Part shown: positions 890 to 8,525 of the stretch, one piece after another | How positions within the stretch are numbered: position 1 is the stretch's first letter | Layout: the number at the start of each line of letters is the position of its first letter | DNA from: an uncultured Clostridia bacterium | GTDB taxonomy: Bacteria > Bacillota > Clostridia > Christensenellales > Borkfalkiaceae | Length of the DNA: 64,000 bases | Direction: 5' to 3' | Assembly: GCA_947626575.1 (NCBI GenBank) | Contig: CANQSR010000011.1 | Span: 944 to 64,943 of the forward strand | Notes under the pieces: generated by a model | Seen by the model: only the letters and a program-made list of their open reading frames with translations | Told to the model about the DNA's origin: nothing | The model's database searches: none | Made by a program: the position numbers and the translations under genes

Positions 890-2686
890 TTACGTCAAAT
901 CCACGCTGTGCCTGACGTAGCCTGTGGAATTGGCCATGAGATTATATTCGACGATGAACTGCACCGTCTCGTGCGCGGGGATCTTCACCGTGTAATGGAA
1001 AGCCCTGTCAAAGGCGTCTCCAAAGCCCTCGTTGCCCCGCTGGCATGCGAAATATTCCGTTCCTGCGACGACCGAGCCGTCGATGTTTCTGACAAACGTC
1101 ACCAGCCCGCCCGTCAGATTGATGTGGACCGTCACCGTGCGCTCGCTTTCGCCGCGGTTGGTGAACGTAAATACGTCCTGGTAGTCCTTCATCCAATTGC
1201 CGATGTTGGCAAGTTTGCCGCGGGTATCATACCACCCGCAACCAACCGTGACGGGCTTTTGATCGGGCCCAAAGACGGTGTGGAAGGAGGTCATGTCCGT
1301 GCCGACGGCTTCGGGGTGACCCTGCACGTTGATGTGCGTCACCCACTCTTCGAGCGTCTGTTCGTGCCGCGTCGAGGGGATCTCCGCACCCGGTTCACCC
1401 TCGGCGGGAACGTCGTCCATATAATAGTTGCTGAATGTGACGGGGAGCTTGCCTTCGGGCGTCGCATCGTTGAACACCCAGCTTGCGCTGTTATCCACCA
1501 CATACCCGACGTCCTGCCCGCAATGCACCACGCCGTACGCTTCGGGATCGGTGATGCCGAGGTGGTCGTCGCCGCCCTCCGTTCCGGGCGCGATCTTGGC
1601 GGGGTCGTCATACACATAGTAGGCGCCCTCGGCCTTTCCCACGACGTCGAAGAGTACCGCGCCGTTCTGGCAGTTGCCCGTCACGCGTTTATCCGCCGTA
1701 TCGCCCACGTTGGCGTTGGAAAAGGCGTCCGAAGTCGTGCCGCCGAACACATAGATGAATTTCCCTGCGGGGACACGGTAGGTTATCGGCTGGAAGCCCA
1801 AGAGCGGATAGTTGCCGCTGAACCCCATGAGCGCCTTCCAGCTCGCAAGCTGGCTCTCCGTAAACCCGCCCGGGTCGGGGATCCTGAATTTCAGGTTGTA
1901 AAACTGCGTCCACTCCTGTTCGCCGAAATAGGAGCCGTCTCCCGCACGCTGGTAGCCGATGTTCTTGACGGTGACGTACATGTCCGCGGTCCCCGTATTG
2001 CGTACGCGGTAGCCGTAGAACACGCCGGGGTTCATCTTATCGCTCTGCTGCTCCATCGTGAAAAACACGCTTTGGTCGGAGACATCCTGCCGTGTGATGC
2101 AGTGGTTGACGACCTGCGGGCCTTCGGTGAGCGCTTCGGGTGCGTTGCAATACACATAGAGCGTATCCGGACGCTTGACGTATTCGATGGGGGCGGGCCG
2201 CATGGGATCGGCGGGGTCGGAGGACTCCGTGGGGATCTTGCTCGCATCCGGCACCGCGCCGATCTCGAACGGCAGTTGCGCCGTATGGTTTTTGGCCGTC
2301 ACGGTGAGGCGGATCTTTTTCGAGGCGGGAACGATGCGCACATACACCGTATCGCCCGCTTCAAGCAAAATTTCAAAGCCCTTCTCCGAGGAGACGAGGA
2401 GCGTTCCGTCTTCGCCGTAAAACTCCACCTTCCGGATGCTGCTTGCCAAAAAACTTACGCTGTACGTATCCGTGAAGGGAGCCTTCATCTTGACCGTACA
2501 CGCCGCGCCTTCCTCGATGGTCTGAAAGGAGGAAAGCCGCACAACGGGAAGGTCTGCATGATCCTTTACGTCAAACCCGCCGTTTCCGCCGCCACCGCCG
2601 CCGCCCGTACAGGCGGAAGCCGCAAGGAGCGTAAACACCGCGGCGCATAAGAGCGCACCCTTCCTTCGCATATCGCGTCTCCTCAT
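890..2686 (-). CDS. Secreted lipoprotein of unknown function
   Basis: ORF 890..2782. I prefer the internal ATG at 2686 (MRRRDMRRKGALLCAAVFTLLAASAC). It has a signal peptide with a lipobox Cys followed by a Gly-rich linker, and a hairpin terminator downstream at 841-871. Confidence 0.7.
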   Translation of the reverse strand: MRRRDMRRKGALLCAAVFTLLAASACTGGGGGGGNGGFDVKDHADLPVVRLSSFQTIEEGAACTVKMKAPFTDTYSVSFLASSIRKVEFYGEDGTLLVSSEKGFEILLEAGDTVYVRIVPASKKIRLTVTAKNHTAQLPFEIGAVPDASKIPTESSDPADPMRPAPIEYVKRPDTLYVYCNAPEALTEGPQVVNHCITRQDVSDQSVFFTMEQQSDKMNPGVFYGYRVRNTGTADMYVTVKNIGYQRAGDGSYFGEQEWTQFYNLKFRIPDPGGFTESQLASWKALMGFSGNYPLLGFQPITYRVPAGKFIYVFGGTTSDAFSNANVGDTADKRVTGNCQNGAVLFDVVGKAEGAYYVYDDPAKIAPGTEGGDDHLGITDPEAYGVVHCGQDVGYVVDNSASWVFNDATPEGKLPVTFSNYYMDDVPAEGEPGAEIPSTRHEQTLEEWVTHINVQGHPEAVGTDMTSFHTVFGPDQKPVTVGCGWYDTRGKLANIGNWMKDYQDVFTFTNRGESERTVTVHINLTGGLVTFVRNIDGSVVAGTEYFACQRGNEGFGDAFDRAFHYTVKIPAHETVQFIVEYNLMANSTGYVRHSVDLT

Positions 2687-4500: not shown

Positions 4501-5373
4501 TCACTTGATGTTATCCAAAATATCGAGCATCTCGGAAATGCGTTCGAGGTCGTCGCGGGAGTAGTAGTCGATGTAGATGCGGCCCTTCTTTTCGGTGCCG
4601 ATCAAAGAGACCTTCGTGCCGAGCGACGTGCGGAGCCGCTCCACGAAGTGTTTGAGTTCCACGCTCGTCTTTGCCGTCTTTTTTTCCTTTTCGCGGGCGA
4701 GGATCTCCGGCGGGTTCAGTTCCTGTTTGACGGCGCGCTCCATCTCGCGCACCGAACTTCCGTTTTTGACGCACTCCGCCGCAAGGCGTATCTGCGCCTC
4801 CTTGGGCAGGGGGACGAGGGTACGCGCATGGCCCGGAGAGAGCTTGCCCGTGCGGACGAGGGCGATGACTTCGTCGGCGAGCGTGAGAAGGCGCAGCGTA
4901 TTGGCGATGGCGGGACGGGACTTGCCGATCTGCTCGGCGAGCGCCTCCTGCGTGAGGCCGTAATCCTCCATGAGCTTTTTCATGGCGTACGCCGCCTCGA
5001 TGGGGTTGAGGTCCTCGCGCTGTAAGTTTTCGATGAGGGCGAGTTCGCGGATCTGCTTTTCGTCGAGTTCGCGGATGATGACGGGGACCCGTTCCAGCCC
5101 CGCGCGGCGGGCGGCGCGGTAACGCCGTTCCCCCGCGATGATCATGTACGTCCCGTCCGCGTTCCTGTTGACGACGATGGGCGAAATGACCCCGTATTCC
5201 CGTATGGAATTCGTGAGGTCGTTCATCGCATTTTCATCGAAAGCCTTGCGCGGCTGGTCGGGGTTGGGATAGATCTCCGAAAGAAGCAGTTCGCCGCTCT
5301 TGCCCGCGGTGCGCGCTTCCTCCTCGATCCCCCCCTCGAACAGCGCGGAGAGGCCTCTCGATCCTTTCGCCAT
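4501..5373 (-). CDS. parB: Chromosome partitioning protein ParB/Spo0J
   Basis: 290 aa with the GERRYRAARRAG box, the IENLQREDLNPIE box and an HTH (QEALAEQIGKSRPAIANTLRLL). It lies directly downstream of soj. Confidence 0.95.
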   Translation of the reverse strand: MAKGSRGLSALFEGGIEEEARTAGKSGELLLSEIYPNPDQPRKAFDENAMNDLTNSIREYGVISPIVVNRNADGTYMIIAGERRYRAARRAGLERVPVIIRELDEKQIRELALIENLQREDLNPIEAAYAMKKLMEDYGLTQEALAEQIGKSRPAIANTLRLLTLADEVIALVRTGKLSPGHARTLVPLPKEAQIRLAAECVKNGSSVREMERAVKQELNPPEILAREKEKKTAKTSVELKHFVERLRTSLGTKVSLIGTEKKGRIYIDYYSRDDLERISEMLDILDNIK

Positions 5374-5375
5374 AG

Positions 5376-6140
5376 CTAATCTCCTCTTGCCGATTTTTTC
5401 AAAAACTCTTCCGCAAACGCCTCATAGGCGCGCGCCCCCATACACTTGGGGTCATATAGCGTTACGGGCTTGCCCTGCGCCGCGGACTCTGCGAGCCGCG
5501 CGCTTCGCGGGATGACCGTCTTAAAGATGCGCTTCCCGAAGATGCGCTCCGCCTCCGCGGCCGCCTGCCCGGCCGAAGCGGCGCGCACGTCGTACATCGT
5601 GAGCAGCGCGCCTTCGATGCGCAGATTTTTGTTGAGATGCCGCCTGACGAGCGTCACCGTCTCCGCAAGGCTTTCGAGCGCGGCGCTCTCCGCCCCCGTT
5701 CCGGGAACGGGAATGACGGCGCCGTCCGATGCCGTGAGCGCGTTGATGGTGAGAAGCCCCAAAGACGACGGGCAGTCGAGCAGGACGAAATCATATTGCC
5801 GCGCGGCCTGTCCGAGCGCCGCCCGCAGCAGTTTCTCGCGGTCGCGGCGGTAGATGAGTTCCTGCTCGGCGCGCGCGAGTTCGCCGCCCGCGGGGACGAG
5901 GAACACGCCCGATTCCGTCTCGGCGGCACACCCGCCGATCTGCTCATCCTCGGTGAGGATGCCGTACATCGCTCCGCCCGTCTCCACGCCGCCCAGCCAT
6001 GCCGTGGCGCCGCCGTCGGGCGAGAGATCTGCGAGCAAAACGCGCAAACCCCGTCTGGCGAGAAAGGCCGCAAGGCTGACGGCCGTGGCCGTTTTTCCTG
6101 CCCCTGCGCATTGGTTGATGAACGAAATGACCCTACCCAT
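5376..6140 (-). CDS. soj: ParA/Soj-family ATPase with an atypical deviant Walker A
   Basis: 254 aa, collinear with Soj (LLDCPSSLGLLTINALTASDGAVIPV, LLTMYD, VIPRSARLAES). The N-terminus is NQCAGAGKTAT where NQKGGVGKTTT is expected, and DLSPDG where DIDPQG is expected. Confidence 0.9.
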   Translation of the reverse strand: MGRVISFINQCAGAGKTATAVSLAAFLARRGLRVLLADLSPDGGATAWLGGVETGGAMYGILTEDEQIGGCAAETESGVFLVPAGGELARAEQELIYRRDREKLLRAALGQAARQYDFVLLDCPSSLGLLTINALTASDGAVIPVPGTGAESAALESLAETVTLVRRHLNKNLRIEGALLTMYDVRAASAGQAAAEAERIFGKRIFKTVIPRSARLAESAAQGKPVTLYDPKCMGARAYEAFAEEFLKKSARGD

Positions 6141-6197: not shown

Positions 6198-8297
<2,100 letters not shown>

Positions 8298-8358
8298 ATT
8301 TGGTCTCCTTATCGAAACTTCGCACGCATATTGCGCGTGCGCACATTGTGATAGAGGT

Positions 8359-8387
8359 ATTATACCACAGATGCAGAAAATTATCAA
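8359..8387 (-). promoter_or_regulatory. SigA-type promoter of ftsH
   Basis: On the minus strand: TTGATA (8387-8382), N17, TGG-TATAAT (8364-8359). Confidence 0.65.
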
Positions 8388-8467: not shown

Positions 8468-8483
8468 TGTTTCATGTGAAACT
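8468..8483. promoter_or_regulatory. Degenerate parS-like site
   Basis: TGTTTCATGTGAAACT has 2 mismatches to the consensus. It lies 42 bp from the perfect site. Confidence 0.5.
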
Positions 8484-8509
8484 GTTCCCAAAAAATTTTC
8501 AAATTCCGA

Positions 8510-8525
8510 TGTTTCACGTGAAACA
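8510..8525. promoter_or_regulatory. parS centromere site (perfect 16-bp palindrome)
   Basis: TGTTTCACGTGAAACA matches the Firmicutes parS consensus TGTTNCACGTGAAACA. It lies about 2.4 kb from soj-parB. Confidence 0.8.

Follow-up and report, generated by a model that had tools for sequence, protein, structure and literature searches.

A chromosomal Soj/ParA that has lost its ATP-switch residues and is kept under relaxed selection in a lineage of gut Clostridia

Introduction

ParA proteins are defined by an ATP-driven switch between dimer and monomer, and the locus described here raises the question of what becomes of such a protein, and why its gene is kept, once the residues of the switch are gone. 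The gene in question is the parA (soj) gene of a 64,000-nt stretch of DNA (the window, whose numbering is used for the coordinates below) from a metagenome-assembled genome of an uncultured gut Clostridia, which has 35 contigs and is 97% complete. A preliminary description of the window had proposed that the product of this gene, referred to here as the query, carries Cys instead of the signature Lys11, Ala instead of Gly12 and Ser instead of Asp40, and that this natural triple substitution alters the ATP-dependent monomer/dimer switch.

In ParA proteins, dimerisation is mediated by the signature lysine, which reaches the ATP of the other subunit (PMC6582323). The Soj variants G12V (ATP-bound) and K16A (empty) act as monomers (PMC9564211), and they keep in vivo activities, such as the regulation of SMC release and origin trapping, without dimer, DNA binding or ATPase cycle (PMC9564211). 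Moreover, the Soj monomer has been proposed to be an inhibitor of DnaA (PMC7614844). Mutants of the switch I aspartate, like D44A of Thermus thermophilus Soj and D41A of Helicobacter pylori ParA, are deficient in hydrolysis (PMC9178275, PMC11229316). Here we describe a chromosomal Soj in which the switch residues are gone and whose gene has been under selection through a pairwise synonymous divergence (dS) of about 1; most likely it is a half-retired Soj that is kept for a minor job independent of ATP hydrolysis.

Results

Residues of the ATP switch are lost

The protein encoded at 5376-6140 (minus strand) starts MGRVISFINQCAGAGKTATAV and runs on to LLADLSPDGGAT. HMMER aligned it to the solved Soj/ParA proteins with no gaps across the N-terminus, and Cys11-Ala12 stood against the K-G of 'nqkggvgkt' and Ser40 against the Asp of 'lvdldpqgnat'. 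In fact, Ser40 shares its column with the D44A mutation engineered into T. thermophilus Soj (2BEK) and with an Ala of 8RAY_B. The codons at the three changed positions are TGC (Cys11), GCA (Ala12) and TCG (Ser40) and, because the first reads TGC, the change from lysine to cysteine needs more than one base change. The three substitutions of the preliminary description are thus borne out by the translation of the open reading frame (ORF) and by the gap-free alignment. Since the genome was assembled from a metagenome and is split into 35 contigs, one could suspect that a normal KGG...D is masked by an error of sequencing or assembly, by the wrong frame or by misalignment. However, the alignment with Soj runs without gaps from residue 1 onward, several base changes are needed at Lys11, the same Cys11, Ala12 and Ser40 are present in an independent protein that is 99% identical and comes from other contigs (P0001), and homologous degenerate states are found in four further species, so that an artefact or an alternative alignment can be taken as ruled out, its probability being negligible.

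The loss extends well beyond these residues. Our reference was a set of 142 canonical ParA relatives in which 73 positions are near-invariant (conserved in at least 97% of the sequences). Lys11 is conserved in 99% of them and Gly12 and Asp40 in 100%, and their motifs read QKGGVGKT and LLVDLDPQGNAT where the query has QCAGAGKT and LLADLSPDGGAT. The query is altered at 20 of the 73 near-invariant positions, a figure that in the canonical sequences has a mean of 0.49 and a maximum of 6. The further altered sites are V14, T18, N22, Q42, N44, G90, P125, Q146, E148, A151, E153, G154, Q157, N213 and A219-S221, and at the level of motifs they turn GKTTT into GKTAT (T18), PQGN into PDGG (Q42 and N44), DCPPS into DCPSS (P125) and EAPS into ESAA (A219-P220-S221). 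Furthermore, the conserved QSEYYALEGLSQL segment (the QSEYYALEGL region) has been wholly replaced, and residues 146-158 of the query now read PGTGAESAALESL. The preliminary description was therefore right in that all three residues are gone, but it under-reported the extent of the change.

Another group of residues (G15, K16, T17, D38, D122, N133, R186, P211, R212, R215 and E218) is unchanged in the query as well as in the four degenerate relatives presented below, and the P-loop GK(T) and the PRSARLAES segment are retained, as had been claimed. Arg186 aligns with what we take to be R189 of B. subtilis Soj, by our own count along the sequence of that protein. The query has the P-loop homology and the fold of the ParA/MinD proteins, as well as the P-loop Lys/Thr and the Walker B Asp; it does not have the deviant Walker A KGGxxK[ST] with its signature lysine (it reads CAGAGKT) or the DxD of switch I (Asp38 is kept and position 40 is Ser). 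As judged from its sequence, it is a Soj by descent that fails the two defining deviant-Walker-A motifs, the signature Lys and the catalytic Asp.

The assignment to the family is clear from several sides. The Pfam families PF13614 (AAA_31) and PF01656 (CbiA) match the protein with 124.8 bits (cut-off 27) and 68.9 bits, respectively, and PF06564 (BcsQ) matches it weakly. The closest solved structures in HMMER searches were ParA 8RAY (E = 4.5e-53) and T. thermophilus Soj 1WCV/2BEK (about 2e-44). An AlphaFold2 model built from 38 input sequences had a mean predicted local distance difference test score of 93 and could be superposed on Soj/ParA structures with template-modelling scores of 0.90-0.95, and on McdA (6NON/6NOP) with about 0.85. 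The NCBIfam equivalog model NF041546 (ParA_partition), scored for the query alone, gave 87.1 bits, under its cut-off of 180, which is weak evidence. The gene is adjacent to parB, near parS and at the position of the chromosomal orthologue: the order yidC-jag-...-DUF1256-cvpA-ftsH-parA-parB-(LPG_synthase_C/GNAT) is common to the query and its relatives. Because the ftsH-parA-parB synteny and the sequence matches agree, the parA gene is a chromosomal Soj/ParA orthologue both by position and by sequence.

The search for a second canonical parA that the preliminary description had called for, carried out in the 97%-complete genome with the protein, PF13614 and PF01656, recovered no second ParA and only MinD, Mrp/ApbC and Ffh. 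The MinD of the same genome has the canonical KGGVGKT and DFDFG, and Mrp/ApbC has KGGVGKS; as these proteins keep the motif, the loss is specific to Soj.

The degeneration is shared by a small sub-lineage

A search of 5.8 billion proteins retrieved, besides P0001, only a handful of close relatives; all the others, at 52% identity or less, were canonical. P0002 (60% identical to the query) reads NPSKGVGKT...VDSAPNARAT, P0003 (61%) NQQAGVGKT...VDLSPDAATT and P0004 (58%) NQCTAAGKT...IDAAPNGRAT, and P0046, which is the protein of genome G011 (54%), is half-degenerate, as it reads NQREGVGKT and keeps Asp40. In the order query, P0002, P0003, P0004 and P0046, the residues are C/S/Q/C/R at position 11, A/K/A/T/E at position 12 and S/A/S/A/D at position 40. 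Hence the C-A-...-S pattern is shared by the 99% identical P0001, but the other relatives carry different replacements, and since the residues differ at the same sites they indicate a lost constraint and not a new motif. A tryptophan at position 48 has been gained in common by four degenerate members.

Among 121 sampled species of the genus, the degenerate type was found only in G222 (62% identical, similar to P0003) and G011 (55%). Another 111 species had a match at 45-52% identity, and every N-terminus that was read among them was canonical; no ParA match was found in seven species of the sample. The degenerate ParA is therefore a feature of a small sub-lineage of one large genus and no one-off. 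Two otherwise canonical ParAs, P0017 and P0093, each from a single contig, have the signature lysine alone substituted (NQMGGVGKT and NKNGGVGKT), and these changes are either errors or early isolated changes at the same residue.

In the ParB tree, the query, P0002 and P0003/G222 formed a clade with a support of 100/100, which joined G131 plus G203 (both without ParA) and G011 plus G182 (the latter without ParA) at 89/93, with the canonical G032 as sister. When ParB and FtsH were concatenated, the clade of the query still grouped with G131 and G203 (97/91), but G011 plus G182 (100/98) were placed beside the canonical G083 with 100/100. In both trees every degenerate lineage has a ParA-deleted sister, and G173 represents an independent deletion elsewhere in the genus. 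The trees are in conflict on whether the degeneration had one origin or two, and recombination around ftsH-parA-parB is a possible cause of the conflict. The loci concerned are those of G011 (L004), G182 (L081) and G083 (L003), and the disagreement is strongly supported.

Selection is relaxed on ParA alone

Within the degenerate group, pairwise identity is 60-62% for ParA and 86-90% for the adjacent ParB, compared to 81% and 79%, respectively, among canonical species of the genus; family-wide, ParA is the more conserved of the two proteins in 351 of 378 pairs. Terminal branches have 0.4-0.75 substitutions per site in ParA versus 0.05-0.1 in ParB. The ratio of non-synonymous to synonymous rates (dN/dS, omega) was estimated by maximum likelihood (ML) with the codon model GY+F3X4+G4 and pairwise by NG86. 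The ML omega was 0.130 for the degenerate ParA and 0.049 for the canonical ParA of the genus; for ParB the corresponding values were 0.045 (degenerate group) and 0.049 (canonical). With NG86 the degenerate ParA gave 0.24-0.34 versus 0.05-0.11 in close canonical pairs of similar dS.

The composition of the gene has moved as well. The G+C content of parA at first and second codon positions (GC1/GC2) went from 0.51-0.58/0.33-0.40 to 0.61-0.69/0.45-0.51 in the degenerate group, and in the protein Ala has about doubled and Lys has fallen by about half, both measures being unchanged in parB; an unusual abundance of Ala, Gly and Arg marks parA of this group but not the adjoining parB. As the G+C content at third codon positions in the genomes of this group is 0.7-0.8, the rise in GC1/GC2 represents a drift toward the mutational/fixation bias. 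Such a shift in composition may be usable as a marker of relaxed selection in GC-biased genomes. Identity, branch lengths, dN/dS and composition together establish that purifying selection has been relaxed on ParA alone. We also considered a relaxation specific to the catalytic module, for which there was no support as omega is up in both sets of codons, those of the module and the others.

Relaxed as it is, selection is still real. The five lineages, at a pairwise dS of about 1, have an open frame of 251-256 codons in each case, and in a neutral simulation with substitutions only, at 0.4-0.5 changes per site, the chance of having no stop was 0.006-0.012 per lineage. We found neither a disrupted frame nor a dN/dS near 1, as would be expected of a pseudogene. 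Because the five ORFs are intact and the P-loop Lys/Thr and the Walker B Asp are kept, the degenerate parA is not a neutral pseudogene.

The gene has been deleted repeatedly in related genomes

ParA is found in 111 and ParB in 146 of the 151 genomes of our family sample. By genus, ParA is present in 0 of 11 genomes of g6, 0 of 4 of g9, 0 of 5 of g23 and 1 of 11 of g12, and it is partly missing in g18 and g22, with ParB kept. Ten ParA-less genomes were inspected, including G131, G203, G182 and G173 of the same genus and G012, G023, G008, G005 and G018 of other genera, and in them ftsH abuts parB directly; tblastn on these inspected genomes detected no parA remnant. Clean excision of parA between ftsH and parB has thus occurred many times in the family, nearly always with ParB kept (loci L037-L042 and L080-L082).

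These deletions bear on the possibility that the degenerate gene is a functionless relic, whose reading frame would stay open because of its position in the ftsH-parB operon, through the polar effect that nonsense or frameshift mutations would have on parB, or because the product must fold and not be toxic, with deletion as the end point. The repeated and clean deletion of parA in sister lineages and in other genera fits such a relic, as do the rise of omega across the entire protein, beyond the catalytic sites, the drift of GC1, GC2 and amino-acid composition toward the mutational bias, and the tight junction of the two genes, in which the start of parB is 2 nt past the stop of parA and the parB ribosome site (GAGGAG) lies within the final parA codons. 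On the other side, the ML omega of 0.13 and the NG86 values of 0.24-0.34 are far below 1, and K16, T17, D38, D122, R186, R212 and R215 are kept in five lineages, for which a constraint of folding or toxicity alone is not obviously enough. Moreover, deletions of the G131 type indicate that parB can be expressed without an upstream parA, so operon polarity is no absolute constraint. We consider a relic with no function at all unlikely, although the mundane reading that the gene is on its way out is fully viable.

Probable erosion of both sides of the contact between ParA and ParB

According to the preliminary description the partner ParB is fully canonical. This holds for the bulk of the protein, as the ParB_N, HTH and C-terminal domains are intact and the GERRYRA and ENLQRED motifs are present (196.5 bits for TIGR00180, cut-off 58.45), but not for the N-terminal ParA-activating peptide, which reads KGSRGLSALF, one residue shorter and with its conserved Leu lost. 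The degenerate group together with G131, G203 and G011 have KGSRGLSALF, KGGRGLSALF or KGRGLSSLF, one residue shorter and without the Leu, versus the canonical KGLGRGLSALF. In the structure of H. pylori ParA with DNA and ParB(1-10), Leu7 and Arg9 of ParB are conserved contacts, and Arg9 stacks on Phe52 of ParA, which follows the LG after switch I (PMC11229316). The equivalent of Phe52 is Phe in most family members and G, V, A or L in the degenerate ParAs, in which the loop is two residues shorter. By analogy with this distant structure, both sides of the ParA-ParB contact would seem to be eroded.

The whole N-terminal KGLGRGLSALF peptide is missing from ParB in long-term ParA-less genera, namely g9 (G008, L040), g12 (G012, L038) and g6 (G005, L041), and it is still there in the recent ParA losers G131 and G018 and in the degenerate group, which looks like a co-loss of the ParA-activating peptide with ParA. 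In G005, the ParB-like ORF 956-1819 (minus strand) has LLAAEKDFHAAKIAG at the GERRxRA site that binds cytidine triphosphate (CTP), and it aligns only from residue 64 on; the CTP switch of this ParB homologue may be degenerate too. G005 carries a second ParB-like copy.

Organization of the locus

The features of the locus are collected in Table 1. The ftsH-parA-parB genes are located directly downstream of a ParB loading site, with a perfect parS and a copy with 2 mismatches within 8468-8525, and the observed count was reached in 0 of 100 shuffles. This operon context differs from the Bacillus type, rsmG-noc-soj-spo0J, and no Noc paralogue was detected in the query genome, where a single ParB-family gene was found.

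Table 1. Features of the parA locus and motifs of the ParA and ParB proteins, in window positions.
Feature	Position	Strand	Remarks
parA/soj orthologue	5376..6140	-	ATG start, 254 aa, intact ORF; degenerate catalytic and dimerisation motifs
Deviant Walker A, QCAGAGKT (canonical QKGGVGKT)	6090..6113	-	Lys11>Cys (signature), Gly12>Ala, Val14>Ala; G15-K16-T17 kept
Walker A'/switch I, LLADLSPDGGAT (canonical LLVDLDPQGNAT)	6003..6038	-	D38 kept; D40>Ser, Q42>Asp, N44>Gly
Loop after switch I, AWLGGVE (canonical TGLGFSKG..)	5982..6002	-	Phe after LG lost, 2 aa shorter, Trp48 gained
Walker B/switch II, FVLLDCPSSLG	5757..5789	-	Asp122 kept; invariant Pro125>Ser in all degenerate relatives
PVPGTGAESAALESL in place of near-invariant PIQSEYYALEGLSQL	5667..5711	-	Loop and N-terminus of helix 152-168; no Lys/Arg
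TMYDVR	5583..5600	-	Kept motif with invariant Arg186 (142-sequence alignment)
IPRSARLAESAAQG (canonical IPRNVRLSEAPSHG)	5472..5513	-	P211, R212, R215, E218 kept; N213, A219-P220-S221 changed
ParB N-terminal peptide MAKGSRGLSALF (canonical MAKGLGRGLSALF)	5338..5373	-	Arg kept, conserved Leu lost, one residue shorter
parB/spo0J	4501..5373	-	290 aa, canonical core; Pfam ParB_N, HTH_ParB, ParB_C
ftsH	6198..8387	-	Upstream neighbour of parA, 57 nt apart; real start maybe downstream of listed TTG
parS, perfect, TGTTTCACGTGAAACA	8510..8525	.	Upstream of ftsH; copy with 2 mismatches at 8468-8483

The preliminary description had also related the changes in Soj to an origin devoid of dnaA. The dnaA gene is indeed absent beside the dnaN-area genes of the window, none of which adjoins dnaA; it is present on a different contig of the same genome. 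The same genes flank it in a further 12 species of the genus, and one of these, G097, carries a canonical ParA. Because the same flanks are found in these species, the relocation of dnaA is unrelated to the change in ParA: the whole genus has dnaA apart from the origin region, and the proposed link does not hold. A rewired circuit between Soj and DnaA is possible.

Discussion

We have described a chromosomal Soj that, in our opinion, is probably best explained as a protein without an ATPase cycle, probably monomeric, which is under relaxed but real selection and has a residual, dispensable role independent of hydrolysis. Signature Lys11 and Gly12, which would be needed for the ATP-sandwich dimer, have been lost, together with the catalytic Asp of switch I, the Pro of switch II, a conserved segment of the presumed dimer face and the loop that in H. 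pylori ParA holds the N-terminal peptide of ParB. As the P-loop Lys/Thr, Asp38, the Walker B Asp and the fold are kept, the protein probably still binds nucleotide as a monomer. It is predicted to form no sandwich dimer, to carry out neither hydrolysis nor cycling and not to be triggered by ParB; with no dimer there would be no nucleoid binding and therefore no segregation ratchet, and the segregation of origins would then be left to ParB-parS-SMC alone, as in ParA-lacking bacteria. SMC is present in the query genome.

An altered monomer/dimer switch, as put forward in the preliminary description, is thus a natural reading of the residues, but its framing as a specific triple substitution does not fit a change that is a protein-wide relaxation affecting a gene that has been deleted in sister lineages. 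Those relatives are one step further on. We infer a residual role because the gene is under relaxed but real purifying selection, and candidates for it, as a guess by analogy, could be the activities of the B. subtilis Soj monomer, which inhibits DnaA and regulates how SMC is released from ParB; no other activity of Soj that is independent of the dimer has been documented. The top structural match of the query was 9a6n_A, an integrative model of B. subtilis Soj with NrdR, and other partners of Soj have been reported too, which could still be served by a monomeric remnant.

Several points weigh against this explanation. Omega is raised about equally in the 71 'active-site/interface' codons and in the 182 others, and this whole-protein rise looks like a general relaxation, which would suit a gene that is being lost no less than one that has been repurposed. 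The N-terminal peptide of ParB, with its Arg, is still present, which could mean that the ParA-ParB contact matters. Besides, Gly12>Ala is milder than the studied Gly12>Val, so that some dimerisation might persist in the query species; the roles of monomeric Soj on DnaA and SMC are known solely from B. subtilis; and the monomeric state, the binding of ATP and the lack of hydrolysis are all read from residues.

It is also conceivable, although we find it rather doubtful, that a monomer-locked and hydrolysis-dead Soj has been selected purely as a regulator, for instance one that restrains DnaA constitutively or governs the release of SMC from ParB-parS. If so, it would be the evolutionary counterpart of the 'ATP-Soj' allele G12V of B. 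subtilis, and the regulatory monomer function of a ParA could outlive its function as a segregation motor.

The peptide kept by ParB is also relevant to a different possibility, that of a working ParA-type ATPase in which dimerisation and hydrolysis are compensated for in the manner of McdA, by a lysine at the N-terminal end of a helix further on. From McdA it is known that another position can provide the signature lysine (PMC6582323, PMC8684754), P0002 has a Lys one position later (NPSKGVGKT), and the gain of Trp48 in four members, the high-confidence prediction of the fold and the Arg-bearing ParB peptide could be read in the same sense. Nevertheless, the PGTGAESAAL of the query is devoid of basic residues and there is no conserved Lys/Arg in the segment of McdA Lys151: residues 146-158 (PGTGAESAALESL) contain no Lys or Arg and none is conserved in the relatives, with a mapping that is approximate (6NOP HMMER ranges and helix start). 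Asp40 has become Ser or Ala as well, when McdA keeps its Walker A', and position 12 is K, T or E in relatives. Furthermore, the replacements differ among relatives and ParA changes at several times the rate of ParB, the reverse of what the recent fixation of a catalytic solution would look like, and the gene has been deleted in close relatives. A compensated ATPase is accordingly very unlikely.

The nearest precedents for a Soj without ATPase cycle are the laboratory alleles of Soj, McdA, BcsQ and ParB-only chromosomes. The G12V, K16A and D40A variants of B. subtilis Soj, D44A of T. thermophilus Soj (2BEK) and D41A of H. pylori ParA belong to the same family and have the same size, fold and ParB/parS partner; position 12 is that of the dimerisation-defective, ATP-bound monomer allele and position 40 that of the hydrolysis-deficient allele (PMC9564211, PMC11229316, PMC9178275). 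Unlike in these alleles, the changes of the query are natural and combined, about 17 further near-invariant sites are altered, Gly12 has become Ala and not Val, and the signature lysine, which is untouched in the three standard alleles, is lost. The query also differs from B. subtilis in that its operon follows ftsH and no Noc paralogue was found in its genome. McdA, a protein for carboxysome positioning, shares the ParA fold and a residue other than lysine at the signature position, but it keeps the GG, the Walker A' aspartates and the substitute Lys151 and is a very active ATPase (PMC6582323, PMC8684754), whereas in the query no substitute lysine is conserved, Gly12 and Asp40 are gone and evolution is fast. 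BcsQ, from the same superfamily, has a Walker A that is degenerate by nature (RGGVGTT) and a non-canonical action (Table 1 in PMC9178275), but it constitutes a separate and stably conserved family of cellulose secretion, and the query is a Soj orthologue that has degenerated recently within one genus.

In genera g6, g9, g12 and g23 of the same family, ParB-parS and SMC are kept and ParA function is dispensable, a situation to which the query resembles except that its parA is present, intact and selected, so that it is intermediate between a full ParABS system and a ParB-only one. Chromosomes that have ParB without ParA are known in Streptococcus and Staphylococcus.

In a limited search of the literature we found no description of a naturally degenerate chromosomal Soj that is kept under selection. 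If the gene is merely a slow-dying remnant, it would be a case of ordinary gene decay that agrees with the known dispensability of ParA in Firmicutes-type bacteria. In any case, the intact, disabled and deleted parA genes found within one genus constitute a comparative series for the dispensable functions of ParA and for what ParB-parS-SMC are capable of alone.

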